From positions 2,880,001 to 2,944,000 of the forward strand of contig CAVRAY010000001.1 of NCBI GenBank assembly GCA_963719225.1: a stretch of DNA of 64,000 bases, in the 5' to 3' direction. The position numbers were made by a program, and so were the translations under genes. The stretch comes from Thermoanaerobaculia bacterium (GTDB taxonomy: Bacteria > Acidobacteriota > Thermoanaerobaculia > UBA5066). Below, piece by piece: positions 2,017 through 63,271 of this stretch. The notes beneath the pieces were generated by a model. It did not search any database and was not told where the DNA came from. It worked only from the letters and a program-made list of their open reading frames with translations. Within the stretch, counting starts at the first letter, position 1. Each line of letters begins with the position of its first letter.

Positions 2017-2424
2017 ATGAGCCGCGGCCTCTCCGTCGATCCCTCCGACGCCGTTCCGCTCTGGAAGCAGATCGAGGAGAACGTGCGGCGGCTCGTGGCC
2101 TCGGGCGCGATGAAGCCGGGCTCGGCCGTGCCCTCCGTGCGCGACCTCGCGCGCGATCTCTCGATCAATCCCGCGACCGTGGCAAAGGGCTATCAGCGCC
2201 TCGTGGACGCGGGAATCCTCGCCGTGAAACGGGGCGAGGGAACTTTCGTGGCCGAAAAGCCGCCGGCTCTCCCGCGTGGCGAGCGCGAGAAGGAGCTCGA
2301 AGGAGGCGCGATGCGCTACGCAAGCCTCGCCGTCACGCTCGGTGCGCCGAGCGAGGAGGCTGTGGAGCAGGTGAAACGCAGTTTCGGATTTCTTAGAAGG
2401 AAGAGAGAGGGGGGAGCGGAATGA
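2017..2424 (+). CDS. GntR-family (YtrA subfamily) transcriptional regulator
   Basis: PLWKQI...PSVRDLA..L.INPATVAKGY..L...G.L...RGEGTFV wHTH; short C-terminus; precedes ABC ATPase. Confidence 0.92.
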   Translation: MSRGLSVDPSDAVPLWKQIEENVRRLVASGAMKPGSAVPSVRDLARDLSINPATVAKGYQRLVDAGILAVKRGEGTFVAEKPPALPRGEREKELEGGAMRYASLAVTLGAPSEEAVEQVKRSFGFLRRKREGGAE

Positions 2425-2524
2425 CGACGCAGCAGCAGGCCGGTGGTGTCGTTGCCGCTGCGGGCCAGAGGGGCGATCCGTCGCGCGCGACTTCGGCGCA
2501 CCCGGCACATTCACCTTCTAGGAA
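2390..2524. repeat. Inverted pair of the dispersed TTCTAAGAA motif
   Basis: TTCTTAGAA 2390-2398 (minus copy) and caccTTCTAGGAA core 2516-2524 (plus copy). Confidence 0.75.
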
Positions 2525-3458
2525 CTCTTCATTTCCGGTGGTCGAGGTTCGCCGCCTGCTCGTGAGATACGGCGGCAATCCGAAACCCACTCTCGAAGAA
2601 ATCTCTTTCTCCGTTCCCCGTGGCTCCGTGTATGCGCTGCTCGGGCGCAACGGCGCGGGCAAGTCCTCGCTCGTGCGCTGCCTCCTCGGCCAGCAGAAGC
2701 CGACCGCCGGCGCATGCGCGCTCTTCGGCGAGGATGCCTGGAGACGCCGGGCACGTCTCATGGCGAAGGTGGGCGTCGTCCCCGAGGACCCGGACGCGCC
2801 GCCCGCGATGACGGCGAGCGAGCTCTCGGCTTTCTGTGCGCGCTTCTATCCCTCGTGGGACGGCGCGGGCGTCACGGCCCGGCTCACCCGCTTCGAGGTC
2901 CCGGCGACGACGCCGTTCGGCAGCCTCTCGAAAGGTCAGAGGGCGCTCGTCTCGCTGTCGCTCGCCCTGGCTTCCTCGCCCGACCTTCTCGTCCTCGACG
3001 ATCCCACGCTCGGGCTCGATGCCGTCGCGCGCGCGGCCTTCTTCGACGAGCTCGTGGGCGAGCTGGCCGACCGCGGGACGACCGTCCTCCTCACCTCGCA
3101 CGACCTCGCGGGCGTCGAGAAGATGGCCGACCGCGTCGGGATCCTCAAGGGCGGGAAGCTCGTCCTCGACGAGACTCTCGAGAGTCTCAAGGCGCGCTTC
3201 CGGCGCCTGCGCTATGGAAACGAGGGGGCCGAAGATCCGGCCATGTACGGACAGGAGCTTTCGGCCTTCGACGCCGTCAAGGTCAAGGTGCGCGGCTGGG
3301 GCATCGAGGCCCTGGTCTCGAATTTCGGCGACGAGCCGTTTACGCGCTTTCGCGCGCTCGAAGGCGTCGTGGACGCCGAGGCGTCGGCGCTCTCTCTGGA
3401 GGAGATCTTCCTCGCCGTCGTGGGGGAAGCGTCTCCCGCGGCAAAGGGGAATGCATGA
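2421..3458 (+). CDS. ABC transporter ATP-binding protein
   Basis: GRNGAGKS Walker A, LSKGQ signature, LVLDDPT Walker B, SH switch; ATGA overlap with GntR gene. Confidence 0.93.
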   Translation: MTTQQQAGGVVAAAGQRGDPSRATSAHPAHSPSRNSSFPVVEVRRLLVRYGGNPKPTLEEISFSVPRGSVYALLGRNGAGKSSLVRCLLGQQKPTAGACALFGEDAWRRRARLMAKVGVVPEDPDAPPAMTASELSAFCARFYPSWDGAGVTARLTRFEVPATTPFGSLSKGQRALVSLSLALASSPDLLVLDDPTLGLDAVARAAFFDELVGELADRGTTVLLTSHDLAGVEKMADRVGILKGGKLVLDETLESLKARFRRLRYGNEGAEDPAMYGQELSAFDAVKVKVRGWGIEALVSNFGDEPFTRFRALEGVVDAEASALSLEEIFLAVVGEASPAAKGNA

Positions 3459-5398
3459 AAGGCACTCTCGCCGTCGCGGCGCGGGAGATCGCGGAGCGGA
3501 AGCTTCTCTTTCTCGGCGCCTTCGTCGCCGGGCTTCTGCCGCTCGGGTTCCCGCTCATCCCCGTCTTGCATCACAACCCGCGTGAAGCGCGGTCCGTGGC
3601 CGTGCTCCTCGTGGCCGCCACGATCGCGGTGGCCTTTCCGCTGGTCTTCGGAGCCACGATCCTGGTCGGCGACATCGCCCAGAAGCGCCTGAGCTTCTAC
3701 TTTTCGCGGCCCTTGCCTGCCGCTTCGATCTGGGCCGGAAAGCTGCTCGCCGCGCTGGTGATCTCGATCGGTTGCGCCTTCCTCGCCGTGGCGCCGGTTT
3801 TCTTCCTGGAAGGGGAAAGCGCCTTCTCGTCCGACACGGGCGGCTTCGGTTCGCAAGGCCTCCTCGCTCTCGCCGTTCCTGGCGTTCTTCTCCTCCTTCT
3901 TCTCGCACATGTCGTGGCCTCGATGGCGCGGCTGCGCTCGGCCTGGATCGTTCTGGATTTCATCCTGGCTGCGGCCTTCACGGTCGCGATCGCGCTCTCC
4001 CTTCGAAGTCTCTTCCTCACGGGCTTCTGGGATCTCGAAGAGATGCGGCAGTCCCCCGACCCTCTCGCCGGATGGCTAGTCGCCGCGCTCATCGGGGTGC
4101 TTCTCGCCGCGAGCTGCGTGCAGGTGGCCGACGGGCGCACGGACGCACGACGCTCGCACGGAGCGCTCTCCGCGACGCTCTGGGGTCTTATCGCCCTCGC
4201 CGTGGCGATTCTCGGAGGTCTCGCCTGGTGGGCGTCGTCCGCTCGGGCGACGGACCTCGCGCGAATCGAACCCGGAGTCATGACGGCGCCCCGTGGGTCG
4301 TGGGTAGCCGTCGCTGGTCCCCTCCGCGCAGGACGGGGCGCGGGGAGATTCCTCTTCGACACCGAAGGAGGCCGCTCGGTGCGGATCCGGTCGGGCGAAG
4401 CCGTCTTCTCCGCGAACGGGGCGCGCGCGGCATGGGCGGAGGAGAGGATCGGATTCTTCGAAAGGGGGAGAAAGGCAGATCTCTTCGTCGCCGACCTCGC
4501 ATCGGCGAGGACCGTCAAGACGGGCCTCGAGAGCTCCGTGTGGTCCCGGGTCGCCCTCTCTCCGTCGGGAAACCGGCTGGCGGTTTCCGACGGGCACACG
4601 CTCGAGGCTTACGACGTTTCCAATCCCGCGAACCCGAAGCAGGCCGCGGCGATACGTGTCGAAATCAGCTCGAACACAGTCGTCTTCATCGACGATGACA
4701 CCGTCCGGATTTTTCCAAGGTACTACTGGGCGGCGAAGCGGAAGGACGTCACGCCGCGCGATTTCGACATCGAGGAGATCTCTTTCCTTTCTAAGAAATC
4801 TATCGTGACCGGCCGCTTCGATCGCGATGCTCTCCCTTACCTGCGTGTCAGCGCGGACGGGCGATATTTCGTCGGCACGAAAGAAAAGCGCCTCACGCTC
4901 CACGACGGCCGGACGGGCGCGGAGTTGCGGACTCTCGAGAGCGATCTCAAGGGCGCAAGAGCTCTCTTCATCTCGGGCGGCCGTATCGCCGTGGCCGGCG
5001 TCGCAGATGGAAAGGGAGTGTCGAGGATCTTCTTAGAAGGTGATGCGCGCGCGGCGGCTGCGCGCGCGATCGACCTCGGCCCGGCCGCGACCCTCGTCCT
5101 CGGAGGCGAAGTCGCCCCCGGGCGCGTCGCCGTGGCGCTCAATGCCTTTCTAAGCAATGACGAACGGTCACACCCAGCCTGGAAGCTCGCATTCGTGGAC
5201 GTGGTGACGGGTGAGGTCTCTCCCGGCCCCGATGGCCTTGCCCCCGCCGCCCGGTTCTCGTGGTGGTTCTCGCCCGTCCTGCCGCCTTCCGAAGCGGGAT
5301 CCCCCGCCTCGAAGCTCTTCCTCGACGCGTCCGGCGCGCTCGTGCGGCTCGATCCCGCGACTGGCAAGCAGGAAGTCCTCCTCGGCGGCAGACGCTAA
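3455..5398 (+). CDS. ABC-2-type permease-like membrane protein with C-terminal extracytoplasmic beta-rich (propeller-like) domain
   Basis: ATG 3455 overlaps ATPase stop; about 8 hydrophobic segments, FYFSRP....IWAGKL motif, then FSANG/LSPSG/SADGR repeats. Confidence 0.75.
   Translation: MKGTLAVAAREIAERKLLFLGAFVAGLLPLGFPLIPVLHHNPREARSVAVLLVAATIAVAFPLVFGATILVGDIAQKRLSFYFSRPLPAASIWAGKLLAALVISIGCAFLAVAPVFFLEGESAFSSDTGGFGSQGLLALAVPGVLLLLLLAHVVASMARLRSAWIVLDFILAAAFTVAIALSLRSLFLTGFWDLEEMRQSPDPLAGWLVAALIGVLLAASCVQVADGRTDARRSHGALSATLWGLIALAVAILGGLAWWASSARATDLARIEPGVMTAPRGSWVAVAGPLRAGRGAGRFLFDTEGGRSVRIRSGEAVFSANGARAAWAEERIGFFERGRKADLFVADLASARTVKTGLESSVWSRVALSPSGNRLAVSDGHTLEAYDVSNPANPKQAAAIRVEISSNTVVFIDDDTVRIFPRYYWAAKRKDVTPRDFDIEEISFLSKKSIVTGRFDRDALPYLRVSADGRYFVGTKEKRLTLHDGRTGAELRTLESDLKGARALFISGGRIAVAGVADGKGVSRIFLEGDARAAAARAIDLGPAATLVLGGEVAPGRVAVALNAFLSNDERSHPAWKLAFVDVVTGEVSPGPDGLAPAARFSWWFSPVLPPSEAGSPASKLFLDASGALVRLDPATGKQEVLLGGRR
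4789..5156. repeat. Three copies of the dispersed TTCTAAGAA motif
   Basis: Cores at 4789-4797 (+), 5030-5038 (-), 5148-5156 (+, TTCTAAGCA). Confidence 0.75.
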
Positions 5399-5408
5399 GA
5401 TCCCTCCA

Positions 5409-6386: not shown

Positions 6387-6433
6387 CGCGCGGTCTTTCG
6401 GAACGGTCATCTTCACGCGCATAATTCCCCGAC

Positions 6434-7039: not shown

Positions 7040-7067
7040 CCCCGGCTCGCGGTCGCGGCCCGATCTC

Positions 7068-23438: not shown

Positions 23439-24725
23439 TCACGCGAAAAGCGCCTCCCACGCTTCCCAGAATCCCGGCCACGACTTCGCGACGACATCTG
23501 GATCGTCCAGCGTCGAACCTCGAGGCAACGCGAGCGCGAGGACGGCGGCCGACATGGCGACGCGGTGATCTCCGTGCGCCACGAATGCCGCCGCTCGCGG
23601 GAAACCCGTCGGGCCGTCCACGACGAGGACGGGGCCGTGCCTGTCTCTCTCCTCACGCGCCGCCGCGCCCGCGCGCGCGAGCAGATCGAGCGCGGCCGCG
23701 AGGCGGTCGGACTCCTTTTCGCGGAGGCGCGCGACGCCCGTCAGGCGCGACGTGCCGCCCGCGAAGGCGACGAGCGCCGCGAGCGGGAGCGCGGCATCCG
23801 GCGCGGCGTCGACGTCCGCGTCGACCGGAAGAAGCGCGCGCGCGCCGCCGTCCGGCCCCGCGACCGTAAGCGCCTCCTCGCCATCCGGCGCTTGCTCCCA
23901 CCCGAGCGTTCCGCCCGCGGCAGCCGCCCACGCCCGGAAGGCCGCGTCCGGCTGCTCCGAGTCGCGCGCGAGGCCGCGCAGCGTCACGCGTCCTCCGGAG
24001 ACGAGCGCGCCCGCGATGGGAAAGCAGGCGGCCGAATCGTCGCCGCTCACGCGAAAGCGCGCCGGTCGGTAGCCGCCGCCCGAAGACGCGCCGAATCCGT
24101 CGAGGACGCGCCGGGTCAGAGCGAGATACGACGCCGACGAAACCTGCCCTTCGACCTCCATCTCGATGCCGTCCGGAACGACGGGCGACACGAGCATGAG
24201 GGCCGACAGGAATTGCGAAGAGACGTCGCCGCGGATCTTCACGCGCCCGCCGCGCAGCGAGCCGCCGCGGATCGCGGCGGGAAGGAAGCCTTCGCGCACG
24301 AGACACGTCACGTCTCCACTCAGGGTTCGGATTGCTTCGAAGAGAGGGCCCATGGGGCGCTCGCGCAGGCGAGTCGTGCCGTCCAGGACGTAACGGCCGG
24401 GGATCGCTGCGAGGAGGGCGGCGAGGAAGCGCGCCGGCGTGCCCGCATCTCCGACGTCGACGGTCAACTCCGCCGCCGCATCGCCGCGGGGACGCAGCGG
24501 TCCGCGCACCCGCCAACTCACACCTTCTAAGAAAATTTCCGCTCCCAGGAGCCTCAGCGCCGCCGCGAGCGCTCGCGTGTCTGTCGAATCCAGCGGATCG
24601 AGCAGCTCGCTCTCGCCTTCCGCGAGCGCCGCGGCGGCGAGCGCACGGTTCGTCAGGCTCTTGCTGCCCGGGACGCGGAGACTTCCGGCGAGACGGCCTC
24701 CCGGAAGGAGTCGGGGAACGTTCAA
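23439..24725 (-). CDS. aroA: 3-phosphoshikimate 1-carboxyvinyltransferase (EPSP synthase)
   Basis: PGSKSLTNRAL, RERPM, SSQFLSAL, LREKESDR, DHRVAM, VAKSWPGFW. Confidence 0.96.
   Translation of the reverse strand: MNVPRLLPGGRLAGSLRVPGSKSLTNRALAAAALAEGESELLDPLDSTDTRALAAALRLLGAEIFLEGVSWRVRGPLRPRGDAAAELTVDVGDAGTPARFLAALLAAIPGRYVLDGTTRLRERPMGPLFEAIRTLSGDVTCLVREGFLPAAIRGGSLRGGRVKIRGDVSSQFLSALMLVSPVVPDGIEMEVEGQVSSASYLALTRRVLDGFGASSGGGYRPARFRVSGDDSAACFPIAGALVSGGRVTLRGLARDSEQPDAAFRAWAAAAGGTLGWEQAPDGEEALTVAGPDGGARALLPVDADVDAAPDAALPLAALVAFAGGTSRLTGVARLREKESDRLAAALDLLARAGAAAREERDRHGPVLVVDGPTGFPRAAAFVAHGDHRVAMSAAVLALALPRGSTLDDPDVVAKSWPGFWEAWEALFA
24525..24533 (+). repeat. Single copy of the dispersed motif inside aroA
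   Basis: caccTTCTAAGAAaattt. Confidence 0.75.
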
Positions 24726-39320: not shown

Positions 39321-41803
39321 TCAGGGCGCGCTTCTCACGAAGGCGGCGTTGACGGGGGCCGGCATCGGGGAGTCGGCGCCGCGGACGCTCTTCCAGATCG
39401 CCTCGTTGAGGGGCACGTCGGGGGCGGCGTCTTCCCTCGAGAAGTCCCACGTGTCCGCAAGAGCCTGCATCGGCGCGCCGCGCGGATTCGTCTCGTAGAA
39501 CGGGATCGCCGTTTCGCGGTGGACGAAGGGCGCCGGGTCCGGCACGTCTGCGAACGCGGCCGTCATAGGCGTCGCGCCCGCGTCGTGCTGCGACATGGGC
39601 GGAAGCCCGAGGATGAGCTCCATCGTCCGGAGCATGGACGTCGTCGAATACATCGTCGAGTCCACGGCTCGGCGCCGCGTGTACGGCGACACGACGAGCG
39701 CGACCGTGCGATGCGCGTCGACGTGGTCGGGTCCGTTCTGGGCATCGTCCTCGACGACGAAGACCGCCGTCTCGCTCCAGAAGGGCGAGAGCGAGAGCGC
39801 CTCGACGAGGCGGCCCAGGGCGACGTCGTTCTCGGCCACCATCGCGCGCGGCGTCTTGCCGCCCTTCTTCGTCCCCACGGTGTGATCGTTGCCCAGCCGC
39901 ACGATCATGAGCCGCGGCATCTCCTTCTTCTTCACGTACTGGGCGAATTCCTTCAGCCAGATGTCGACGCGCGCGTTGTCGAGGATTTCCGTGTCGAATC
40001 CCGGGTAGTAGGGATTCGTGTTCGCCCTGAGCGCGCCCTCCTGACCCTGCGAGAGGCCCGCCTCGAGCGGCGTTTCGGATTCGGAGGCGATGCCCGTGAA
40101 CTCGCCGTAATTGCGCAGCGAGAGCCCGGCGCGCGCGGCCGCGTCCCAGAGGTAGCCGTTCGTCGGAAACGCCGCGGGATCGTTCCCTTCGAAGAGGTAG
40201 GAGAAGCCGTGGCTGCCGTAGCTCGGAGGCCAGACCTTCTCCACGAAATCCGTCGCGTACGCGCCCATGGACCAGTTGTGGCCGTCGGCGGAGACCTCGG
40301 CATCGCAGTAGAAGTTGTCGAGCGTGACGTACTCCTCGGCGAGCGCGTGCGCGTTCGGCGTCACGTCGCGCCCGAAGAGGACGAGCGACGGGTCGCCGTT
40401 GCCCTTCGGGAGGTCGCCGAGGACCTGGTCGTACGTGCGGTTCTCGCGGACGACGTAGACGACGTGCTTGATCGGCGACGTGCCGCCGGGCGCGGCCGGC
40501 ACGACGGCCGACGCGCGCACGGTGAGGGATCCCCGCGCGGCGGGCCGGCGGTTCGCGTACGCCCGCGTGGTGAGAGATGCGAGCTGGCGACCGTCGGGAA
40601 CCGGACGCGCGAGACGCTGCCGGGGATCGTCCGCGTGAGGCGCGTCGGGTCTCCGAGCTTCGGCTTCGTCGGATCCGGCCCGCCCTTCGAATTCTCCCAC
40701 GAGCCGCCGCCCTTCGCATTCGCGACCCAGAGGGTCCTCCCGTCGCGCGAGAGGGCGAGCGCGTCGGGATACCAGCCGGACGGGATGAATCCCTTCGCGC
40801 GTGCCTTCGCGGGACCGAGGGAAAGATCCACCACCGCCACGGCGTCGTCGTCGGCATTCGCGACGAAGAGCCTCTTCCCGTCGCGCGAAAGGGCCAGCGC
40901 GTTCGGCGTCGAGCCGTCGGGCATCGCGTCCGACGAGGGCGTCCCCGGCCCGTCCGGACCGAGCGCGACCGAGATCTGCCGCACGACTCCCCGCGACGCG
41001 ACGTCCACGGCTGCGACGAGGTTCCGGTTCGCCTGGGCGACGAAGAGCGTTCTTCCGTCGGGCGAAAAGACGAGATCTCCCGGATGGTCCGCCGTCTTCA
41101 CCGAGCCGGTCGCGATCGCCTTTTCCGGATCGACGAACGTCACGGCCGCTCCGCCCCATGCCGCGAGCGCGAGGATCTTTCCATCCGGGGAGAAGACCGG
41201 CCGGTAGGGATGGATGCCCGCGGAAACCCCCGCGACGACCTGCCTTGCGGCGAGATCGACCTTCACGACGTCGTTCGCGAGGATGCGCGCGGCCCAGAGA
41301 GTCTTGCCGTCCGGTGAGATGGCGAGCCCTCCCGGCGTCGCGTCGACTTTCGGCCCGTCCTCCTTGCGCTTCAGCGAGATCGGCTCCTCGGCGACGAAGC
41401 GGTCCCGTTCCAGGCGATAGACGAGGACGTTTCTCCCTTTGGCGCCGGCGACGTACGCCCGCGCGCCGTCCGGCGAGAGCGCCATGCCGAGCCACGAATG
41501 CGGCAGGGGCTGCTTGAAAAGGGACTTCCCCGAGGCGGCGTCCAGCAGGTGGAGCGACTGGTCATCCGCGCCGGTGCAAAGCGCGACGACCCGGCTTTCA
41601 TCGGGCGCGAGCGCGAGCGCGAACGGGTAAGGCGAAACCTCGGTCTGCGTGCCCGTCGGGGTCAGCAGGCGCCCGTTCGGGAGCTGGACCTCGCCGGTCG
41701 GCAGGCGCGACGGTACGACGCGGTCGGCTACGAGGAGCGAAGAAGAAAGAGAAAGAGAGAATGAGAATCTGCTTAGAAAGGAAAGAAAGAACGAGACGCG
41801 CAT
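39321..41803 (-). pseudogene. YVTN beta-propeller plus phosphoesterase (alkaline phosphatase superfamily) protein split by a single frameshift near 40603
   Basis: N-half (signal, LPNG, propeller repeats, GWYP) and C-half (IKHVVYVVRENRTYDQV, SADGHNW, NDHT, EDDAQNGPDHVDAHR) lie in different frames; one extra C at GTC CGG restores continuity. Confidence 0.8.
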
Positions 41804-42602
41804 ATGGGGAAGACTAGCGCGCTCGACAGCTCATTCGCCCTAAATCGATATCCGCGCGACGCCCAGGACCTTCCGGCTCTTTCTCTCCTGAACGAAAGCC
41901 ACGGCGTGTAGCTCATTTCTCTTCCAGTCCGCTTTGAGGCGAAGCGGGCGCTCCGTCTCGAAAAGTCCTCCCGGTCGAACCGTGCTCACGACCGCGAGTT
42001 CGCGAACGACGGCGCCGTGCACGAGGCGCCGCCCCGCGTTCTCGCCCCGCGGCACGTCGCTCGCGAGCCCGTCCTCGGTGATCGCGAGGAGGAGCTCGGC
42101 CGTATCGCCAGGCGTGACGGGCGGCAACGCGCTGACCCGGACCCGCAGGGCGGCCCCCTGCCCGTTCGCCGACGGCAGGATCTCGATCGACGCCTTCGGC
42201 AGACGGGCGGCCTCCTCGACCGCGTGCCGCGCCTTCTTCTCGTCGCTCCCGACGAGCTCCGTGCGCCCATCCACGACGACCTGCGGCGTGTAGACGCGGC
42301 TTTCGCCCCAGGCGCGGCCGTAGTCGCTCTGGCGCGCGCTGAACGACTCGGAGGAGTAAGGATCGGCCCACCCGAGGCGGTTCCAGTAATCGACGTGCAA
42401 GGACAGTGGCACGACCTCGGCACCGGCGACCGGCTGGGTCCGCTCGAGGCGCACGAGCGCGAGGTCGGCCGGAGGGCAGCTCGAGCAACCCTCGGACGTG
42501 AACAGCTCCACGAGGACCGGAATGCGGGCGGATCGAGGTCCCTCGGCGCTCGTCGAGCCGGCGGCGAGTACGAGCACCGCCGTCAAGATGATTCTCTTGG
42601 AA
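41770..42602 (-). repeat. Two copies of the dispersed motif in signal-peptide coding regions
   Basis: TGCTTAGAA 41770-41778 and CTCTTGGAA 42594-42602. Confidence 0.6.
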
Positions 42603-45709: not shown

Positions 45710-46954
45710 ATGGCGAGAGGGGACCGCGCGGACTTGAAGGATCTCGCCATGCTCTTTCTCCGCCTCGGCGCCACGGCTTTCGGCGGCCCCGCGGCTCACA
45801 TCTCGATGATGGAGCACGAGGTCGTGACGCGGCGCGGCTGGATGACGCGCGAGGAGTTCCTCGACCTCCTCGGCGCGACGAATCTCGCGCCGGGGCCGAA
45901 CTCCACGAAGATGGCGCTCTTCATCGGCCACGCGCGCGGGGGCTGGCCGGGCTTTCTCCTCGCCGGCCTCGGCTTCGTCCTGCCCGCGACTCTCCTCGTC
46001 ACCGTCTTCGCGTGGGCCTACGTGCGCTTCGGCTCCCTTCCCGCGTTCCCGCATTTCTTCGAGGGCATCAAGCCCGTCGTCCTCGCGCTCATCGCGCACG
46101 CCCTCGTCAGCCTCGGACGCACGGCGGTGAAGAACAAATTCTTCCTGGCGCTCGGGCTCGCCGCGCTCGCTGCGAGTTTCTTCGTCCATGAGCTTCTGCT
46201 GTTGCTCGTTGCGGGTTGTCTCTCGACGGGGGTGATGGTGTTGGAAGATTTGCTTAGAAAGGGTAAGAGGAGCGGCAAAGCTCCGGCATCGTCGGAGCGC
46301 GTCGACGGCGTTGAAGGTGCAGGTGATGCCAAGCGCGGCGACGTGTCGGGAGGCGCGCCTGCCCACCCCCAACCCCCTTCTAAGAAATCTTCTCTTCTCT
46401 TCCTTCCCCTCTTCTCCCTCGGCGTCCCTCTCTCGTCTTTCTCCCTAACCAGCCTTCTCCTCTTCTTCCTGAAGACCGGTGCGGTGCTGTTCGGCAGCGG
46501 CTACGTGCTCCTCGCCTACCTGAAAGCGGATCTCGTCGAGCGCTGGCACTGGCTCACGAGCGCGCAGCTTCTGGATGCCGTCGCGGTAGGCCAGTTCACG
46601 CCGGGGCCGCTCTCGTCCACCGCGACGTTCATCGGCTACGTGCTCGGGGGCCTGCCGGGGGCGTCCGTCGCGACGCTCGGCATCTTCCTTCCCGCCTTCG
46701 TCCTCGTCGCGGTCATGGGGCCGTTCGTGCCCCGTTTGCGGCAGTCGAGACTCCTCGGCGCTTTCCTCGACGGCGTCAACGTCGCGGCGCTCGCGCTGAT
46801 GGGCTACGTCACTCTCCAGTTCGCGCGGCCCGCTCTGACGAACGGCCCGACGGTGGCCCTTTTCCTCGCCAGCGTGGCGCTTCTCTCGACCGTGAGGATC
46901 AACGCGGCCTGGCTCGTCCTCGCGGGCGGGATCCTCGGGGTCGTTTTCGGCTGA
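45710..46954 (+). CDS. chrA: Chromate ion transporter (CHR family, long chain)
   Basis: LG..AFGGP, PGPNST, FGSGYVL, GQFTPGP. Confidence 0.93.
   Translation: MARGDRADLKDLAMLFLRLGATAFGGPAAHISMMEHEVVTRRGWMTREEFLDLLGATNLAPGPNSTKMALFIGHARGGWPGFLLAGLGFVLPATLLVTVFAWAYVRFGSLPAFPHFFEGIKPVVLALIAHALVSLGRTAVKNKFFLALGLAALAASFFVHELLLLLVAGCLSTGVMVLEDLLRKGKRSGKAPASSERVDGVEGAGDAKRGDVSGGAPAHPQPPSKKSSLLFLPLFSLGVPLSSFSLTSLLLFFLKTGAVLFGSGYVLLAYLKADLVERWHWLTSAQLLDAVAVGQFTPGPLSSTATFIGYVLGGLPGASVATLGIFLPAFVLVAVMGPFVPRLRQSRLLGAFLDGVNVAALALMGYVTLQFARPALTNGPTVALFLASVALLSTVRINAAWLVLAGGILGVVFG
46244..46392. repeat. ~20-bp inverted repeats (dispersed motif) bracketing the ChrA linker
   Basis: GAAGATTTGCTTAGAAAGGG 46244-46263 versus CCCCCTTCTAAGAAATCTTC 46373-46392. 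Confidence 0.8.
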
Positions 46955-52330: not shown

Positions 52331-54307
52331 TCACACCGCGGCCCGCACCGGAAGCACGATCGCCTGGACCCCCTCGAACTGGAGTCGGCGCTGGATCGCC
52401 ATTGCGGTCTCGTTGTGGAGGAGGCGGTGGTACCAGTCCTCCTTCTTGAACACGAGCTTGCCGCTGAAGACGACGGAGCGCGGAAACTCCTCGCGCAGCT
52501 GCTTGCAGATCTTCACGACCTCGTCCACGGCTTCCGTCGCAATCGCCATCCGGTAGCCCGCGTTCCAGCCCTTCTCCCGGCACCACGCGACGTATTTCTC
52601 CAGGTTCTGCCGGGTATCCGCCTCGAGGTGGCCCATCTCGTCGCTGCCCTTGAAGTTGCCGGAGTCCACCACGGCCACAGACACGAAAATGAAGTTCTTG
52701 TAGTAGTTCGGGAACAGCATATGGATGCTCAGGATCTGATGGATCCCGTAACCGGAGAAGCGATCCACGGTGAGGACCGCGGTCGGCACCTTGTGGTCGA
52801 GCGCGGCCACGCAGTTGTCCGCGACCGGAACGGGAGCCACCGGCACGAGGACGTCGTCGAGACGCTTGAGGTCCTGTTTCACGCTCTCGTAGTGCCGCCG
52901 GATGAGAAAGCAGACGGCGATCGTCGCGCTCGTCACGAGCGAGGTCATCCAGCCCCCCTCCGCGAACTTCTCGTAGAGCGTGACGCAGAGGATCGTCACG
53001 CACATGACGAGCCCGGTGCCGTGAATCGCGAGAAGGCCCTTCCAGTGTGGCTCCTTGTGCCGCTCCACGATCCAGTGGCGGGACATGCCGAGCTCGGTGA
53101 GCGAGAACGTGATGAAGACGTTGATCGAGTACATGACGACGAGCATCGTGATGGCGCCGCGCGTGTAGAGGAGAGCCGCGATCGCCGCGAGGCCCATCAG
53201 GAAGACGCCGTTCTTCGTGACGAGGCGGTCGGAGAGCTGCGAGAAGCGGTGCGGGACCCACGAGTCGATCGCCATGTTGCCGAGGACGCGCGGCCCGTCC
53301 AGGAACCCTGCCTGGGCCGCGACGACGAGGAGAGCCGCCTCGGACGCGAGGAGGATCAGCACGAAAAGAGTGCCTGCGCCGAAACTGCCGATGTGCCAAT
53401 GTCCGAAGAGCGCGTCGAAGAGTACCCAGTTCATCGTCTTCCCTTCGGCGGGACGCGCGCCAACGAGGAGATAGCCGAACAGGATGCCGCCGGCCGTGAA
53501 GGCGAGCGAGGCGGCCATCATGGCCATGGTCCTTTTTCCGGTCCTGACGCGCGGCTCGCGCAGGATCGAGACGCCGTTCGAGACGGCTTCGATTCCCGTG
53601 TACGTGCCGCCTCCCAGCGAATAGGCCCGAAGGAGGACGAAGGCGAGCGGCCAGAAACCCATGGTCGATACCGACGCGTGGAAGTCGCGAGAGGCGCCCG
53701 CGAAGACGGTCGGAAGACCCGAAGCGTGGGTCGCGAGCGCGTAGAGGATCGAGAAGGCGTGCGTGCCGACGAAGACCAGGAAGATCGGCGCCAGGACCGT
53801 GACCGACTCCTTGACGCCCCGGAGGTTCAGGATGATGAGAAAGACGAGGACGACGATCTCGGCCGGCAGCTTGTAGCGAACCATTCCGGGTTCGAGGAAG
53901 TTCCAGACCTGGTCGCAGGCCGAGGCGATCGATACCGTGATCGTGAGGACGTAGTCGACGAGGAGGGCGCAGCCCGAAACAACACCCACCTTCGGTCCGA
54001 GGAGCTTGGTCGCGACGAGGTACCCGCCCCCTCCTCCCGGGAAGTGCTGAATGAGGTTCGAGTACGCGATGGAGATCACCGCAATCGTGAGGGCCGTCAT
54101 CGCGACGAGGACGATTGCCAGCGAGCGGTGGGTCCCGAGGGCCCGGAAAGCCTCGTCCGGGCCGTACGCAGAGGACGAGAGCCCGTCGGCCCCGAGGCCG
54201 ACCCACGCGAGGAAGGCCACCAGGGATACCCGATGGAAAACGTGCGGATCCTTGACGTCGCGAGGCTTGCCCAGGAGGACCTGGGAGATCTTGCTGGGCT
54301 CGGACAT
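52331..54307 (-). CDS. APC-superfamily transporter, KimA/YdaO-like (K+ uptake), copy 1
   Basis: DGLSSSAYGP, FPGGGGGY, LLVDYVLT, NLRGVKES, TGIEAVSNG; cytosolic C-domain with LLHNETA. Confidence 0.85.
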   Translation of the reverse strand: MSEPSKISQVLLGKPRDVKDPHVFHRVSLVAFLAWVGLGADGLSSSAYGPDEAFRALGTHRSLAIVLVAMTALTIAVISIAYSNLIQHFPGGGGGYLVATKLLGPKVGVVSGCALLVDYVLTITVSIASACDQVWNFLEPGMVRYKLPAEIVVLVFLIILNLRGVKESVTVLAPIFLVFVGTHAFSILYALATHASGLPTVFAGASRDFHASVSTMGFWPLAFVLLRAYSLGGGTYTGIEAVSNGVSILREPRVRTGKRTMAMMAASLAFTAGGILFGYLLVGARPAEGKTMNWVLFDALFGHWHIGSFGAGTLFVLILLASEAALLVVAAQAGFLDGPRVLGNMAIDSWVPHRFSQLSDRLVTKNGVFLMGLAAIAALLYTRGAITMLVVMYSINVFITFSLTELGMSRHWIVERHKEPHWKGLLAIHGTGLVMCVTILCVTLYEKFAEGGWMTSLVTSATIAVCFLIRRHYESVKQDLKRLDDVLVPVAPVPVADNCVAALDHKVPTAVLTVDRFSGYGIHQILSIHMLFPNYYKNFIFVSVAVVDSGNFKGSDEMGHLEADTRQNLEKYVAWCREKGWNAGYRMAIATEAVDEVVKICKQLREEFPRSVVFSGKLVFKKEDWYHRLLHNETAMAIQRRLQFEGVQAIVLPVRAAV

Positions 54308-54702: not shown

Positions 54703-56679
54703 CTACACCGCGGCGCGGACCGGCAGGACGATCGCCTGCACACCCTCGAACTGGAGCTTCCGCTGAATCGACATCGCCGTCTCGTTATGCAGAAGGCGGT
54801 GGTACCACTCCTCCTTCTCGAAGACGAGCTTCCCGCTGAACACGACCGATCGCGGGAACTCCTGGCGCAGCTCCTTGCAGATCTCGACGACCTTCTCGAC
54901 GGCTTCGGTCCCGATTGCGAGCTTGTATCCCGCGTTCCATCCCTGAGCGCGGCACCACGCGACGTATTTCTCCAGGTTCTCCCGGGCGTTCGCCTCGAGG
55001 TGCCCCATCTCGTCGCTTCCCTTGAAGTTGCCGGAGTCGACGACGGCCACCGACACGAAGACGAAGTTCTTGTAGTAGTTCGGGAACAGCGTGTGGATGC
55101 TCAGGATCTGGTGGATCCCGTAGCCTGAAAACCGGTCTACCGTGAGGATCGCGGTCGGCAGCTTGTGGTCCAGCTGTTCGAGGGCGTTCTCCGCGACCGG
55201 GACGGGCTGGACGGGCACGAGGACGTCGTCGAGACGCTTGAGGTCCCGCTGCACGCTCTCGTAGTGCCGCCGGATGAGGATGCAGATGAGGATCGTCACG
55301 CTCGTCACGAGCGTCGTCATCCAGCCCCCGTCCGCAAACTTCTCGTAGAGGGTGATGCAGAGAATCGTCACGCACATCACGAGTCCGGTGCTGTGGATCG
55401 CAAGCTGCTGCTTCCAGCCCGGCGTCCGGCGCTCCAGGATCCAATGACGCGTCATGCCGAGCTCGGTCAGCGAGAACGTGATGAAGACGTTGATCGAATA
55501 CATCACGACGAGCATCGTGATGTTGCCGCGCGTGTAGAGGAGCGCCGCGATCGCCGCGATGCCCATCAGGAAGACGCCGTTCTTGAAGACGAGACGGTCG
55601 GAAAGCTGCGAGAAGCGGTGCGGCACCCACGAGTCGATAGCCATGTTTCCGAGGACGCGCGGCCCGCCGAGCAGTCCCGCCTGGGCCGCCACGAAGAGGA
55701 GAGCCGCCTCCGCGAGAAGGAGAGTGAGAATGATCGCGGTCCCGATTGCGAGGCCTCCGATCTTCCAGTGTCCGAAGAGCGCGTCGAAGAGGACGAAGTT
55801 CATCGTCTTTCCCGGGTGCTCCCGCGCGCCGACGAGGAGATAGCCGAAGAGAATGCCTCCGGCGGTGAAGGCCAGCGATACGGCCATGAGCAGCATCGTC
55901 TTCTTCCCGGTCTTCACGCGCGGCTCGCGCAGCATCGTGACGCCGTTCGAAACCGCCTCGATGCCCGTGTACGTGCCACCTCCCAGCGAATAGGCCCTGA
56001 GGAGGATGAGCGCGAGCGGCCAGAAGCCCATCGTCGCCTTTGCGGAACGGTAATCCCCTGCCGCGCTCGTGAACACCGTCGGGAGCTCGGGCGCGTGGGC
56101 GCCGAAGGAATAGAGGATCGCGAACGCGTGCATCCCGATGAAGACGAGGAAGATCGGCACGAGGAACGTGACCGACTCCTTGACGCCCCTGAGGTTCAGG
56201 ACGACGAGGAAGACGAGGACGACGACCTCGGTCGACAGCTTGTACCGGATCATCCCGGGTCCGAGAAAGTTCCAGATCTGGTCGCACGCCGATGCGATGG
56301 ACACCGTGATCGTGAGGACATAATCCACGAGGAGGGCGCAGCCCGAGACGACGCCGGCTTTCCGTCCGAGGAGCTTCGTCGCGACGAGGTACCCGCCGCC
56401 GCCGCCTGGGAAGATCTCGATGACGTTCGCGTAGGCGGTGGAAATGACGGCGACCGTGATCGCGGTCATCGCGACGAGGATGATCGCGAGCGAATGGTGG
56501 CTGCCGAGCGCGCGGAACGCCTCGTCGGGCCCGTATGCCGACGAAGAGAGGCCGTCGGCACCCAGGCCCACCCATGCGAGAAACGCGACGAGCGAAATCC
56601 GGTGGAAGATCTTCGGATCGTTGACGTCCCGGGGCTTCCCCAGGACGAGGCGAGTCAGCGAGTTGCGTTCGGGTGACAA
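54703..56679 (-). CDS. APC-superfamily transporter, KimA/YdaO-like, copy 2
   Basis: Same length (658 aa) and highly similar to copy 1. Confidence 0.85.
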   Translation of the reverse strand: MSPERNSLTRLVLGKPRDVNDPKIFHRISLVAFLAWVGLGADGLSSSAYGPDEAFRALGSHHSLAIILVAMTAITVAVISTAYANVIEIFPGGGGGYLVATKLLGRKAGVVSGCALLVDYVLTITVSIASACDQIWNFLGPGMIRYKLSTEVVVLVFLVVLNLRGVKESVTFLVPIFLVFIGMHAFAILYSFGAHAPELPTVFTSAAGDYRSAKATMGFWPLALILLRAYSLGGGTYTGIEAVSNGVTMLREPRVKTGKKTMLLMAVSLAFTAGGILFGYLLVGAREHPGKTMNFVLFDALFGHWKIGGLAIGTAIILTLLLAEAALLFVAAQAGLLGGPRVLGNMAIDSWVPHRFSQLSDRLVFKNGVFLMGIAAIAALLYTRGNITMLVVMYSINVFITFSLTELGMTRHWILERRTPGWKQQLAIHSTGLVMCVTILCITLYEKFADGGWMTTLVTSVTILICILIRRHYESVQRDLKRLDDVLVPVQPVPVAENALEQLDHKLPTAILTVDRFSGYGIHQILSIHTLFPNYYKNFVFVSVAVVDSGNFKGSDEMGHLEANARENLEKYVAWCRAQGWNAGYKLAIGTEAVEKVVEICKELRQEFPRSVVFSGKLVFEKEEWYHRLLHNETAMSIQRKLQFEGVQAIVLPVRAAV

Positions 56680-57290: not shown

Positions 57291-57989
57291 ATGAAGGAAG
57301 CTCTCGTTCTCGTCTTTGCCGCCGCGAGCCTGACGGACGCCTTGACGGCAATCGGGGCGGCCTGGGAGAAGGGCGGGGGCGGGAAGATCGCATTCAACTT
57401 CGCGTCCTCCAGCACGCTCGCCCGGCAGATCCGCGAAGGGGCCCCGGCGGATCTCTTCCTCTCGGCGGACGAGGACCAGATGGATGCGCTCGAGGAGGCC
57501 GGGCTCGTCGCGCCCGGAACCCGAAGGAGTGTTCTTTCGAACGCGCTCGTCGTCATCGTGCCGGAAGAGAGCCGGACGGAGATTTCCTCTGCAAGGGATC
57601 TGGCCGACGCGCGTGTCCGCCGCCTCGCTCTCGCGGAGCCGCACAGCGTGCCGGTGGGCGTCTATTCGAAGAAATTCTTCGAAAGCAGCGGACTCTGGTC
57701 CTCCGTCGCCGGCAAGGTGATCCCCACCGAGAACGCCCGCGCGACTCTGGCTGCCGTGGAGTCGGGCAACGTCGACGCGGGGGTCGTCTACCGCACGGAT
57801 GCCCTGATCTCCAGGAGGGTGCGGATCGCCTTCGAGGTCCCGGCGGCGTCCGGTCCCGCAATCTCGTATCCGTTCGCGCTCGTCCAGGGGGCGCCGCGCG
57901 AAAAGGAGGCGCGGAGATTCCTCGCGTATCTCGGCTCAGCCGCTGCCCGCGAGCTCTTCGTCCGTTACGGCTTCCTCGTGAAGAACTGA
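57291..57989 (+). CDS. modA: Molybdate ABC transporter substrate-binding protein
   Basis: VFAAASL, FASSSTLARQI..GAPADLFLSA, VPVG.Y, VY.TDA. Confidence 0.92.
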   Translation: MKEALVLVFAAASLTDALTAIGAAWEKGGGGKIAFNFASSSTLARQIREGAPADLFLSADEDQMDALEEAGLVAPGTRRSVLSNALVVIVPEESRTEISSARDLADARVRRLALAEPHSVPVGVYSKKFFESSGLWSSVAGKVIPTENARATLAAVESGNVDAGVVYRTDALISRRVRIAFEVPAASGPAISYPFALVQGAPREKEARRFLAYLGSAAARELFVRYGFLVKN

Positions 57990-59372: not shown

Positions 59373-59385
59373 AGATCTGCATGAC

Positions 59386-59434
59386 TTGACGTCCGTGCGG
59401 TCGTTCGCTACATTGCGATTGAGACTGAGTCGCA
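59386..59434 (+). promoter_or_regulatory. sigma70 promoter with overlapping Fur-box-like palindrome
   Basis: TTGACG 59386-59391, 17 nt, TACATT 59409-59414; TGCGATTGAGACTGAGTCGCA 59414-59434. Confidence 0.7.
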
Positions 59435-60414
59435 TGAGCAACGAGACGATCGTCCGCCACCTCGCGGCCATGGGCACCGCCCTTGCCCTGACGGTGTCGG
59501 CCCCGACGCGCGACACGGCGCTCGCCGCAAGCGAGGCGGGCGTGAGGGAAATCGAGCGGATCGAGGCGCTCCTCTCCACCTGGCGCGACGACACTCCCCT
59601 CGCCCGGCTGAACGCCGCCGCGCCCGGGACGGCGGTCGAGTTGCCGCCGGAGCTTTTCGCGCTGCTGAAAAGAGTCTTCGAATGGAGAGAGAGAACCGTC
59701 GGCGCGTTCGACCCGACGGTAGCGCCTCTCGTGAGGGCATGGGGGCTTCGCGGCGGGGGGCGCATTCCGGGCTTCGCGGAGCTGCGCGCCGCGCGCCGGG
59801 TCACCGGCCCTTCCCTCTTCTCATTCGAAGAATCCTCTTCGTCCATCTCGCGGCGCGACTCCGCCGCCGGCATCGACGAGGGCGCCTGGGGCAAGGGCTG
59901 GGCGCTCGACAGGGCGGCCGCCGCAATGCGTGACGCGGGTGCGGTCGCGGGAGTCGTGGACCTCGGCGGGCAGATTCTCTCGTTCGGGGAAGAGACGCCC
60001 ATCAGCGTCGCGTCTCCTGTCGACCGGAACCGAACCGTCGCCAGGCTGCTTTTGAAGGACTCCTCCGCGTCGACGTCGGGAAACTCCGAGCGCGGCCTCG
60101 CCTTGAACGGCCGGCGCATCGGCCACCTCCTGGATCCGCGCACCGGCGAGCCCGCGCCCGCTTTCGGCTCGGTGACCGTCGTCGCGCCAACGGGTTTCGT
60201 CGCGGACGTCCTTTCGACGGCGTTCTTCGTGCTGGGACCGAAAGACGGTTTGGTGCTCTCGGAGCGCCTTCGGGCGGCAGGCGTCGCTCATGAAACGCTG
60301 TTTTTCTTGGAAGGTGAAGAGGGGAAACGGCTGCGGGTCTCCGCGCGTAGCCCGCGCACCGGACCTTTTCCTCTTACCCATTCTAAGAAATCTTCCGAAG
60401 GAGTCCACCCATGA
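59434..60414 (+). CDS. apbE: ApbE-family FAD:protein FMN transferase
   Basis: AMGT, GAFDPTV.PL..AWG, KGWALD, DLGGQ, STSG..ER, HLLDPRTG, AD.LSTA. Confidence 0.92.
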   Translation: MSNETIVRHLAAMGTALALTVSAPTRDTALAASEAGVREIERIEALLSTWRDDTPLARLNAAAPGTAVELPPELFALLKRVFEWRERTVGAFDPTVAPLVRAWGLRGGGRIPGFAELRAARRVTGPSLFSFEESSSSISRRDSAAGIDEGAWGKGWALDRAAAAMRDAGAVAGVVDLGGQILSFGEETPISVASPVDRNRTVARLLLKDSSASTSGNSERGLALNGRRIGHLLDPRTGEPAPAFGSVTVVAPTGFVADVLSTAFFVLGPKDGLVLSERLRAAGVAHETLFFLEGEEGKRLRVSARSPRTGPFPLTHSKKSSEGVHP

Positions 60415-60477
60415 ACAAACGTTCCTCGACGCGCTTCCGAGGTGCTGCCGCGATCGGCCTCTTTTTCTTTCTAAGCA
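60304..60477. repeat. Three copies of the dispersed motif
   Basis: TTCTTGGAA 60304-60312 (-), TTCTAAGAA 60381-60389 (+), TTCTAAGCA 60469-60477 (+). Confidence 0.75.
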
Positions 60478-61778: not shown

Positions 61779-62304
61779 AGTCTTCCTCCTCCTTCTTCTC
61801 TCCTCTTGCTCACTTTCCCTCGCCAAGAGCTTCCTGACGCAGGAGGAGGCGCTGCGGCTCGCGTTCCCGAAGGGCGCGGTCGTGACGCGGAAGACCGTGT
61901 TTCTCTCGGAGGCCGATCGCGCGGACGTCGCGCGCCGTTCGGGCGGTGCTCCCCCGCCGCGCCTCGTCATTTATTACACGGCGACCGTCGAGGGGCGCGC
62001 AGCCGGGACCGCCTACTTCGACACGCACGTGGTGCGGACGCTGCCCGAAACGATTCTCGTGGCCGTGGATCCGAAAGGCGCGATCGCGCGGATCGAGGTC
62101 TTCTCCTTCTCCGAGCCCGAGGAGTACATGCCGCGCGAGGCGTGGTACGGCCAGTTTGCGGGGAGGACGCTGGGCGAGGAGCTTTCCGAGAGAAAGGGCA
62201 TCAGGCCCGTCACGGGCGCGACCATCACGGTGCGCGTCACCGTCGAGGCGGCGCGCCGCGTCCTCGCGCTGGACGCTTTCCTCGAGGAGAAGGGTCGGAA
62301 GTGA
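61768..62304 (+). CDS. Exported FMN-binding (flavinylated) domain protein
   Basis: Signal peptide; W..QF.G and VTGATIT ([S/T]GAT flavinylation motif). Confidence 0.85.
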   Translation: MNSKVFLLLLLSSCSLSLAKSFLTQEEALRLAFPKGAVVTRKTVFLSEADRADVARRSGGAPPPRLVIYYTATVEGRAAGTAYFDTHVVRTLPETILVAVDPKGAIARIEVFSFSEPEEYMPREAWYGQFAGRTLGEELSERKGIRPVTGATITVRVTVEAARRVLALDAFLEEKGRK

Positions 62305-62738
62305 AGCGCTGGGCCGTCGTCCTGAACCACCTCGCCTGCGTCTTCGTCGGGCTCTCCGGAATCGCGTACGGCGTCATGAAGTACTTCCTGGCGGGCTCGG
62401 ACCCGGATTCGCGCGTCGGGCATCCGTGGCAGCAGCCGATGCTCAAGGTCCACATCCTCGCGGCGCCCTTCCTCGTCTTCGCCCTCGGCCTCATCTTCAG
62501 CGGCCACGCTCTCGCGCGACTGAAGGGGGGCATGGATACGGGCCGCACGAGCGGCTCGGGCCTCCTCGGCCTCGCGGCGCCGATGATCCTCACAGGCGCG
62601 ATGATCCAGGTTCTCACCGGCGACGCGGCTCGGCAGTGGACCGGGTGGATCCACGCCGCGCTCGGGGTCGTCTACGTCCTCGCCTACGCCGCGCACCTCC
62701 TGAAGAAGCTGCCCCTGGACGAGATCTCCCCCGGCTAG
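62301..62738 (+). CDS. 4-TM His-rich membrane protein (cytochrome b-like)
   Basis: GTG overlaps upstream stop; His pairs in TM2 (H..H) and TM4 (IHAALG...AAHL). Confidence 0.7.
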   Translation: MKRWAVVLNHLACVFVGLSGIAYGVMKYFLAGSDPDSRVGHPWQQPMLKVHILAAPFLVFALGLIFSGHALARLKGGMDTGRTSGSGLLGLAAPMILTGAMIQVLTGDAARQWTGWIHAALGVVYVLAYAAHLLKKLPLDEISPG

Positions 62739-63235
62739 GCGGCGGACGGGAGGGCTGGGAGCCAGCGGTTCGTCGCCCGTTTGTAAGCGAGATACGTCTC
62801 TCCGAAACGCGCCGCGAGGCCCGGCTCCTCGACGAAGATCACGAAGAGGTTCGAGAAGAAGAGCGCCGCGAGGGCGACGCCGAAAACGGACGGCGCGTCG
62901 AGGACGAGGCCGGAGCCGACCATCAGCGTGATCGCGCCGACGTACATGGGATTGCGCACGAAGCGGTAGGGCCCGACGGCGACGAAGCGCCTCGGCGCGT
63001 CGAACGGGGCCGGCGTTCCCTCTCCCCGCGCGACGAAAAGGACGACGCAGGTCAGCGCGAGGAGACCGCCGGCAACGGCGAGCGTCATACCGACCTCGGG
63101 CAGCCCCGCGATCGCCGGCAGCGCACGTCCGGCCGCCCGATCGAGGCGCGCGGCCTGCAACACGAGCCACCCCCACAGGGAAACGAAGCCTGTCGCATAC
63201 GCCAGCGCCCTGACCATCACGAAGAGCTGCCTCAC
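62735..63235 (-). CDS. ICMT/PEMT-family membrane methyltransferase
   Basis: GTPAPFDAP, GPYRFVRNPMY, EEP.L..RFG..Y..Y. Confidence 0.9.
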   Translation of the reverse strand: MRQLFVMVRALAYATGFVSLWGWLVLQAARLDRAAGRALPAIAGLPEVGMTLAVAGGLLALTCVVLFVARGEGTPAPFDAPRRFVAVGPYRFVRNPMYVGAITLMVGSGLVLDAPSVFGVALAALFFSNLFVIFVEEPGLAARFGETYLAYKRATNRWLPALPSAA

Positions 63236-63262
63236 AACGCCCTCCTCTCTCCGCTCTTCACC

Positions 63263-63271
63263 TTCTAAGAA
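63263..63271 (+). repeat. Intergenic copy of the dispersed motif
   Basis: ctcttcaccTTCTAAGAAaactcc. Confidence 0.75.

Follow-up and report, generated by a model that had tools for sequence, protein, structure and literature searches.

We describe a one-directional DNA motif, present at about 800 profile sites (809 in the site set) in the genome of a Thermoanaerobaculia bacterium, whose working unit is an oriented back-to-back pair and not a single site. Within 300 bp of one another, 307 site pairs in this genome stand back-to-back (minus site before plus site) as against 8 that stand face-to-face. The motif was first noticed in a window, by which we mean the whole 64,000-nucleotide stretch of DNA analysed. 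That observation is confirmed, and the motif is more structured than in the preliminary description, which took single sites as the unit; the pairing is the new point. The pairs very probably form a DNA element that is read by a protein.

Results

Structure of the motif and its sites in the window

All 18 cores previously listed in the window were recovered, positions and strands included, eight of them as exact TTCTAAGAA. Matches with at most one mismatch numbered 32 over both strands, compared with a mean of 2.5 and a maximum of 6 in 100 dinucleotide shuffles. The proposed core word holds for the exact copies, but its position 4 is not fixed (T 49%, G 32%, A 11%, C 6%). The full consensus is YYYTTYMCY-TTCNAAGAA-WWYYTYY with a G-poor pyrimidine tail of ~30 bp, giving a site of ~30-40 bp that points in one direction. 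The asymmetry reported for the flanks stands; the core, previously called quasi-palindromic, is also asymmetric in its conservation and is not a palindrome. The degenerate profile carries 24-28 bits of information, against 13.5 needed. An Rfam search of the window returned no match.

Seventeen of the 18 cores lie inside open reading frames (ORFs), the one at 2516 being genic only with the ATG at 2421 as start, and the peptides FLRR, FLSKK, IFLEG, LLRN, PSKK and LLRK are encoded at cores as described. The hosts include a GntR C-terminus, an ABC ATPase, aroA, a chromate-transporter linker, ApbE and a DUF1223 protein. Five further sites of at least 14 bits were found (2592+, 4454-, 57675-, 59674- and 59824+), and two of the original 18 are weak (5148, 13.9 bits; 42594, 17.3 bits). 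At the left of the window, the GntR C-terminal site 2390(-, 28 bits) and 2516(+, 26 bits) form a back-to-back pair (2390-2524, spacing 126 bp), with the extra outer plus-strand core at 2592-2600 (24 bits) read in the TLEEI frame of the ABC ATPase. The ORF at 3455-5398 holds both a wide pair, 4454(-, 21 bits) and 4789(+, 34 bits) (4454-4797, spacing 335), and the pair 5030(-, 24 bits) and 5148(+) (5030-5156, spacing 118). Two sites of 32.5 bits each, 32672(-) and 32950(+), are paired within the minus-strand ORF 32464-34488 (32672-32958, spacing 278). The pair 46251(-, 33 bits) and 46378(+, 34 bits) (46251-46386, spacing 127) falls at residues 181 and 223, directly after the first chromate-transporter domain. 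Within apbE lie the pair 59674(-, 19 bits) and 59824(+, 30 bits) (59674-59832, spacing 150), absent from the earlier list, and, at its C-terminus, the first two members of a minus-plus-plus triple at 60304-60477, namely 60304(-) and 60381(+), spaced 77 bp; the third, 60469(+), lies at the N-terminus of the next ORF.

Other sites stand alone or nearly so. The best opposite partner of the aroA site (24525-24533, +, IFLEG) is weak (24333, 5.7 bits, 192 bp away), as is that of the 32-bit site at 33805-33813 (+), whose partner 33724(-) scores 12.7 bits at 81 bp. Unpaired are a strong 40-bit site in a PMT_2-like membrane protein gene (31402-31410, +, LLRN), a 32-bit site at the N-terminus of a beta-propeller ORF (41770-41778, -), the weak site at the N-terminus of the DUF1223 ORF (42594-42602, -) and the strong intergenic 36-bit site at 63263-63271 (+). 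A weak 17-bit match in a solute-binding protein gene (57675-57683, -) may be background.

Number and gene context across the genome

Exact cores number 273 genome-wide; for contig C1, which holds 259 of them, an order-4 Markov model predicts 6.7. Genes contain 160 exact cores, versus 0-3 in codon-resampled nulls; the count against a codon-aware null, proposed in the preliminary description as a check, thus gave a large enrichment. Of the 809 sites, 541 lie fully within called genes; since called genes cover 89% of the genome, intergenic DNA is richer in sites per base. Genic sites use all six frames without preference for sense (269 sense, 271 antisense), and along both replichores each 200-kb bin holds plus- and minus-strand sites in nearly equal numbers. 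Same-sense sites are most frequent 30-90 bp upstream of called start codons; genes were called with a hexamer model of our own that cuts some N-termini short. The site profile holds no information at the -35 position, and no enrichment was seen upstream of operon starts. Sites are absent from a foreign-looking end of contig C2.

Sites are paired back-to-back

An opposite-strand partner scoring 18 bits or more stands on the inner side of 416 of the 603 strong anchors and on the outer side of 10, and in 251 of 259 mixed-orientation clusters every minus site lies to the left of every plus site. Spacings fall mostly between 65 and 250 bp, with a mode at ~75 bp and a sharp drop below about 65-75 bp; a second peak near 138 bp in this genome was not clearly reproduced in relatives. 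No helical phasing of the spacing was detected at periods of 8-14 bp, nor any 10.5-bp dinucleotide period within spacers. About 193 of the 809 sites are isolated, with no other site scoring 18 bits or more inside 300 bp, and loci are unevenly spaced and clustered (gap CV 1.22).

The spacers are native sequence: 230 of 255 are unique, and a repeated 93-bp class is kinase coding sequence. Their GC content is 0.71-0.76, and the arms that point outward are AT- and pyrimidine-rich. Partners resemble one another at random level (19.7 versus 19.6 of 41 positions), the core centre included. Spacers show no tendency to fold (z=0.01), and the duplex energy with the own partner (-20.7 kcal/mol) is matched by that with a swapped partner (-21.1 kcal/mol).

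Constraint acts on the DNA at a cost to protein

In orthologues from motif-free families, identity at the sites is 22% with 20% gaps, compared with 53% and 3% elsewhere in the same genes; spacers score 38% identity. The peptides are thus not conserved where the motif is missing, so the constraint lies on the DNA, as the preliminary description had argued. Short in-frame insertions occur at sites relative to these orthologues, sites tend to sit where genes, and positions within them, are weakly conserved, and the orthologues align collinearly through the pairs. The motif overwrites protein sequence, that of kinases and aroA included.

The pattern is confined to two genera

Outside this Thermoanaerobaculia genus and the genus sister to it, no pairs were found. 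Pattern pairs in the genus number 770 back-to-back and 4 face-to-face, with all 29 of 29 genomes represented, and regions fetched from five relatives gave 77 and 1. Pair positions are kept while spacing shifts (143 to 182, 119 or 128 bp; 166 to 144, 133 or 112 bp). Both partners are retained in 24 of 36 genus alignments, a co-retention short of significance (p=0.054, with rows that are not independent). Judged from their sequences, the genes next to the best-conserved pairs have ordinary housekeeping roles. Most sites are gone from sister genome G082, which makes the system dispensable, and close relatives form a natural series from motif-rich (g1, G174) through motif-poor (G082) to motif-free (g13).

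Searches outside these genera were negative within their scope. Stretches of 400 kb from G033 and from G028, which belong to other families, showed no analogous motif. Viral contigs held 0 strict pairs and 17 loose matches, 16 of them in AT-rich DNA and chance-like. A metagenome scan with the strict pair pattern returned three contigs, all with proteins 72-92% identical to those of this genome. The sequencing runs listed for this genome (shares at most 0.15) included no RNA run, and none of the joints listed from four contig sets, aligned at 82% with mixed cover, lay at a pair. Searches of open-access literature yielded no description of the motif.

Sites are sparse near the origin

GC skew, dnaA, parS and dif define a single ordinary ori-ter axis, and an SMC gene and parS are present. 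In five genomes sites are 2.6-8 times rarer at oriC than at dif (per 100 kb, parS/dif: 9/23, 6/43, 4/28, 5/40 and 4/18), with ori windows 1-3 points more GC-rich; the contrast is present in all five codon-score quintiles. Mapping along this axis, proposed earlier to tell uniform, regional and polarised signals apart, gave a regional bias and no replichore polarity. In this genome the bias is broad and only 2.6-fold, and dif is over 1.1 Mb away for 249 of the 809 sites. A ter bias is not evident among the G174 matches listed, and on G019 C2 density is still high far toward oriC among 100 of 165 matches listed. Of 149 intergenic stretches near the terminus that measure 250-700 bp, only the dif region contains four sites, and at 14 of 23 loci in the genus dif has a site facing it. 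This genome also carries separate, polarised G-rich octamers.

Candidate reader proteins

No co-distributed DNA-binding protein of the kind anticipated in the preliminary description was found, ParB and HU/IHF being present in motif-free genomes as well. Homologues of the dif-adjacent ParB occur in 41 of 41 genomes, motif-free families included, with a nearly identical recognition helix (6 versus 6 aligned), and a parS/NBS-type cognate co-distribution fails. The genus mostly has 4 HU/IHF copies compared with 3 in most other genera; we rejected HU/IHF because the extra copy is also found in motif-free G075 and motif-poor G082. No histone matched PF00808, the sole family tried, and small basic proteins and genes missing from syntenic outgroup stretches, covering about a tenth of the genome, gave no candidate.

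Discussion

The preliminary description had offered two readings, a binding site for a nucleoid or segregation protein and a DNA-uptake sequence. Binding of a chromosome protein is still the best reading, although the tests for matS-, KOPS- and ParB-type roles fail. It is plausible, at somewhat short of an even chance, that the motif is read by a putative lineage-specific dsDNA-binding protein and that pairs act as two-way stops or anchors in chromosome organisation; a role in chromosome architecture at large deserves the same guarded weight. Each site would bind one protein complex with fixed polarity, and the room taken up by two complexes would account for the drop at spacings under about 65-75 bp. 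Such a polar complex might halt or hold a DNA-tracking machine, for example SMC loaded at parS, when it arrives from one side but not from the other; blocking both directions would take two sites set back-to-back. Around oriC, the expected SMC loading area, sites would be kept rare. An asymmetric site in an orientation-dependent arrangement is what a polar SMC barrier would present, yet a barrier to SMC specifically is a doubtful proposition. Equally doubtful is the fuller version, a CTCF-like orientation code in which hundreds of pairs, bound by a putative new reader, cut the chromosome into ~7-15-kb domains by blocking SMC loop extrusion or the diffusion of supercoils from both sides. The question bears on whether bacteria use sequence-defined, oriented domain boundaries.

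A polar stop and a bidirectional loading platform look alike at sequence level. In the latter, inverted sites would flank the point at which a large ring machine is loaded, or would launch two opposite motors (a helicase, translocase or repair/restart complex); yeast and archaeal origins, with their inverted initiator sites, have a similar geometry. The strict orientation rule, the minimum gap without phasing, the GC-rich spacer between AT/pyrimidine-rich outward arms and the greater number of sites in late-replicating DNA all suit it; the one ordinary ori-ter axis and the lack of a candidate loader speak against it, and we consider it unlikely. A DNA-uptake signal spread by biased transformation, with pairs favoured by a receptor gripping both arms of a kinked loop, would agree with the lack of sites at the foreign-looking end of C2. 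It would also resemble DUS/USS, which are likewise described as hundreds to thousands of non-palindromic, clade-specific copies on both strands, in all frames and in weakly conserved positions and genes (PMC2817400). DUS/USS, however, are reported to be spread more evenly than random, to pair mainly as intergenic dyads and to be nearly neutral for proteins (PMC2817400), whereas here sites are clustered, ori-depleted in five genomes and paired over 65-250 bp inside genes, and carry a clear protein cost, with in-frame insertions and encoded residues less conserved than their surroundings. Because of the clustering, the sparseness near oriC and the strict intragenic pairing, uptake is the less supported of the two original readings, and we regard it as improbable.

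Outward-firing promoter pairs or bidirectional RNA-level termination signals would agree with the intergenic richness, with the same-sense peak before called starts and with a G-poor pyrimidine tail that resembles a Rho-loading tract. Near dif, though, divergent intergenic regions are the least dense (0.82 sites/kb, against 1.19 in tandem and 1.35 in convergent ones), a bipartite -35/-10 structure is missing, and two thirds of sites are intragenic without sense bias, which makes this reading quite improbable. A REPIN/MITE-like mobile doublet, or its relics, is largely refuted and has very little probability left. Inverted doublets are over-represented, short insertions occur at sites, and the modal spacing is close to the 71 and 110 bp of REPINs, which form inverted doublets ~70-110 bp apart, hundreds per genome (PMC3116915). 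REPINs, though, are extragenic, palindromic and hairpin-forming, with conserved spacer length and a RAYT (PMC3116915), and none of these latter traits is seen here: sites are mostly intragenic, spacers are mostly unique and unfolded, partners are alike only at random level without duplex advantage or co-varying arms, and the Y1 transposase (PF01797) has 0 matches in this genome (G000, 97% complete), compared with 2-4 in each of four motif-poor relatives. Least credible, to the point of being nearly negligible, are invertible or excisable segments between recombination sites: the inverted-repeat geometry is right, but partner identity is not above random even at the core centre, and inversion would wreck conserved genes (kinases, apbE) whose orthologues are collinear.

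Known genome-wide bacterial motifs are single sites (DUS, matS), replichore-polarised (KOPS, Chi) or extragenic hairpins (REPINs), and a short-range orientation grammar inside genes fits none of these types. KOPS shares an oriented, purine/pyrimidine-asymmetric motif but is replichore-polarised (PMC2680272), whereas here strands are balanced and orientation inverts locally at each pair. The matS/MatP system of enterobacteria and the XerD-dependent unloading of SMC in Bacillus subtilis offer lineage-specific, terminus-biased sites and a proposed control of SMC traffic (PMC8669397); matS is a palindrome that acts singly and is confined to Ter, in contrast to some 800 asymmetric genome-wide sites with a broad bias and back-to-back pairing. 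Archaeal TrmBL2 gives a prokaryotic precedent for a Smc-ScpAB roadblock on AT-rich DNA, by analogy only and not homology, and the available part of that report describes no short-range pairing rule (PMC11840125). With CTCF, again by analogy and not homology, the likeness is that the orientation of an asymmetric motif carries function (PMC7566886, PMC4542312).

Results

An AT-rich 9-bp core had been reported at 18 positions in the window and attributed to selection on the DNA rather than the protein. All 18 cores were found there, 8 of them exact, and one-mismatch matches in the window, which spans 2,880,001-2,944,000 of contig C1, numbered 32 versus 2.5 expected. On contig C1 of the source genome (G000; 4.75 Mb in two contigs, 68% GC, 97% completeness, 6% contamination), TTCTAAGAA was the most over-represented 9-mer, with 259 copies against 6.7 expected from an order-4 model. 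An iterated 30-column profile with a site threshold of 18 bits identified 809 sites in G000. Their consensus is YYYTTYMCY-TTC(T/G/a/c)AAGAA-WWYYTYY, and beyond it a pyrimidine tail poor in G dies out by ~30 bp. Site information was 24-28 bits, a figure inflated by thresholding, versus the 13.5 bits required to specify the sites. The attribution to DNA-level selection withstood a codon-aware null that redrew the codons without altering the encoded proteins (2 replicates): 541 in-gene sites were observed versus 32-40, and 160 exact cores versus 0-3. Since the null itself produced 32-40 sites, background may account for ~7% of the sites called inside genes at 18 bits. Sense and antisense sites were equal (269/271), and all six reading frames were used. 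Within the window, a solute-binding protein gene carries a short palindrome (57665-57683) made of a pair of TTCGAAGAA cores that overlap in inverted orientation, offset by 10 bp; two adjacent, closely similar 658-aa membrane-protein genes are tandem paralogues (52331-54307 and 54703-56679). For the aroA of the window, relatives 76-89% identical were found in MAGs of Thermoanaerobaculia/Acidobacteriota.

The motif is an oriented, degenerate site at the level of DNA. It works in back-to-back pairs of loose spacing, with the minus-strand site left of the plus-strand site. At separations up to 300 bp in G000, 307 site combinations were minus-then-plus and 8 plus-then-minus, with ~0.7 expected per 20-bp bin. 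Few pairs were spaced below ~65 bp; the distribution peaked near 75 bp with a tail to 250-300 bp. When the 603 sites of at least 24 bits were taken as anchors, an opposite-strand partner of at least 18 bits lay 40-300 bp away on the inner side for 416 and on the outer side for 10; lowering the partner threshold to 10 bits gave 469 and 14. All minus sites lay left of all plus sites in 251 of 259 mixed-orientation clusters, extra outer sites being tolerated in the orders --+ and -++, and 193 sites were solitary. When the pair was searched as a set pattern allowing a gap of 50-80 bp, it occurred back-to-back 770 times in 29/29 genus genomes and face-to-face 4 times in 4/29, and regions from five relatives held 77 back-to-back pairs versus 1 within 400 bp.

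The two sites of a pair resembled each other no more than after shuffling of partners (19.7 vs 19.6 ± 0.2 of 41 positions), and pair spacing showed no 8-14-bp period. Among 90 sampled pairs, spacer folding did not exceed that of shuffled sequence (z 0.01 for spacers, -0.13 for controls), nor did arms pair better with their own partner than with other arms. No Y1 transposase match was found in G000. No second copy in the genome was found for 230 of 255 spacers; the sole repeated class, 93 bp long, belongs to the coding regions of Ser/Thr kinases. The pattern caught 17 kinase paralogues, 14 with the pair, encoded as xFxEGEE...RFEREA...YSFEEIP, and 3 that keep ordinary sequence. About ten Ser/Thr-kinase paralogues form a tandem array (C1:2,293,000-2,320,000), each with a 93-bp pair and then a poly-Ser stretch that the motif tail encodes.

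Pairs are restricted to one clade and costly to proteins. CYTTCTAAGAA occurred 64-289 times in each of 14/14 genus genomes including G000, and in two genomes of the sister genus it occurred 45 and 3 times. It was absent from 7 other family genomes, and no genome in the remainder of the 251 from the class had more than 6 copies. The near-zero group includes two unpublished genomes (G025 and G193), on which none of the conclusions rests. The pair pattern was present in 28/28 genomes of the genus, 5/8 of the sister genus and 0/26 of other genera. We compared 52 site alignments with 800 kb from two motif-free families, orthology being assigned by best hit and some sites counting against both outgroups. 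Consistent with the DNA-level selection proposed in the preliminary description, the peptides were not conserved where the motif is lacking: amino acid identity was 22% at sites and 53% over the remainder of the genes that carry them, and gaps made up 20% and 3%, respectively, which indicates that sites occupy tolerant regions and overwrite them, often with short in-frame insertions. Spacer identity to the same outgroups was 38%. Within the genus (n=36 alignments) both partners were kept in 24, a single partner in 8 and none in 4; spacing varied freely among retained pairs. In the sister genus both were kept in 6/14 cases in G174 and 0/12 in G082. G273 scored 0 with the strict pattern, yet a pair is present there at an orthologous place. 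G033, from a motif-free family, contains apparently intergenic inverted heptamer-repeat arrays (GAAACCT, TCACAAT and related units; C1:780-1180 kb, e.g. 789880, 899598, 968512), which are unrelated to the paired motif.

Sites are sparse at the origin. By match to consensus sequences, parS lies with dnaA at C2:326-334 kb and dif at C1:2,037.6 kb, where GC skew switches. The regional bias that would favour a matS-like site held in G000 (0.255 sites/kb within 1.1 Mb of dif vs 0.098/kb elsewhere) and was not evident in G174, where density was nearly flat along the sites listed; among the matches listed for G019, dense sites lay well toward oriC. In G000, enrichment near dif held alike for coding and intergenic DNA and in every codon-score quintile. 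Counts in 100-kb windows at parS and dif were 9/23, 6/43, 4/28, 5/40 and 4/18 in five genomes, which are kin and not independent. In G000 dif is bracketed by two pairs, and a site faces dif in 14/23 genus loci, 12 of these at 68-76 bp. A second parAB operon directly adjoins dif (C1:2,037,566-2,039,524); a dif arm follows parB in 23/24 genus loci, and dif adjoins parB also in G174, G033 and G028, so that terminus-located ParAB is conserved across the order. Both C1 replichores carry polarised G-rich octamers, GGGGGGGG (143:8 leading:lagging) and CGGGGGAG (251:78), presumably the KOPS equivalent. A C2 segment (~774,000-871,796) with reversed GC skew, lower GC, foreign-looking genes and zero sites is possibly contamination or a large island. 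In G019, a genome of 3.9 Mb, only ~740 kb separates dif (C2, 108 kb) from parS/dnaA at oriC (847 kb), which suggests a large rearrangement or misassembly.

Discussion

We infer a putative protein reader with polarity. A promoter reading failed: divergent intergenic regions near dif were the class poorest in sites, and the profile held no -35-like information. A rigid two-site loop predicts phasing and hairpin models predict co-variation, and neither was seen. The remaining options are polar complexes that act independently and a flexible clamp that holds the DNA in a U-turn. A polar complex would act as a one-sided stop, and two back-to-back copies would be required for stopping both ways; the order rule, the tolerated outer extras and the steric minimum would follow from that doubling. 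SMC and parS are present, and both SMC unloading at the terminus (PMC8669397) and SMC roadblocks (PMC11840125) are described as established in other organisms, so we favour chromosome organisation as what the pairs may serve, with confidence a little short of even. Sequence alone cannot separate this from a bidirectional loading platform, which we consider improbable. The geometry of yeast and archaeal origins resembles the pairs.

No description of the motif or its paired grammar was found in the open-access literature. Uptake sequences (DUS/USS) inhabit genes in a similar way (PMC2817400), REPINs have similar doublet spacing (PMC3116915), matS has a similar regional bias, and KOPS is likewise an oriented motif (PMC2680272). 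The preliminary description had favoured an uptake sequence or a binding site for a nucleoid or segregation protein. The motif shares traits with these families, but it falls outside DUS/USS, REPINs and matS alike on one test that defines each. CTCF borders hold back-to-back pairs. It is the orientation logic of CTCF, as outlined in PMC7566886 and PMC4542312, that the paired motif resembles.
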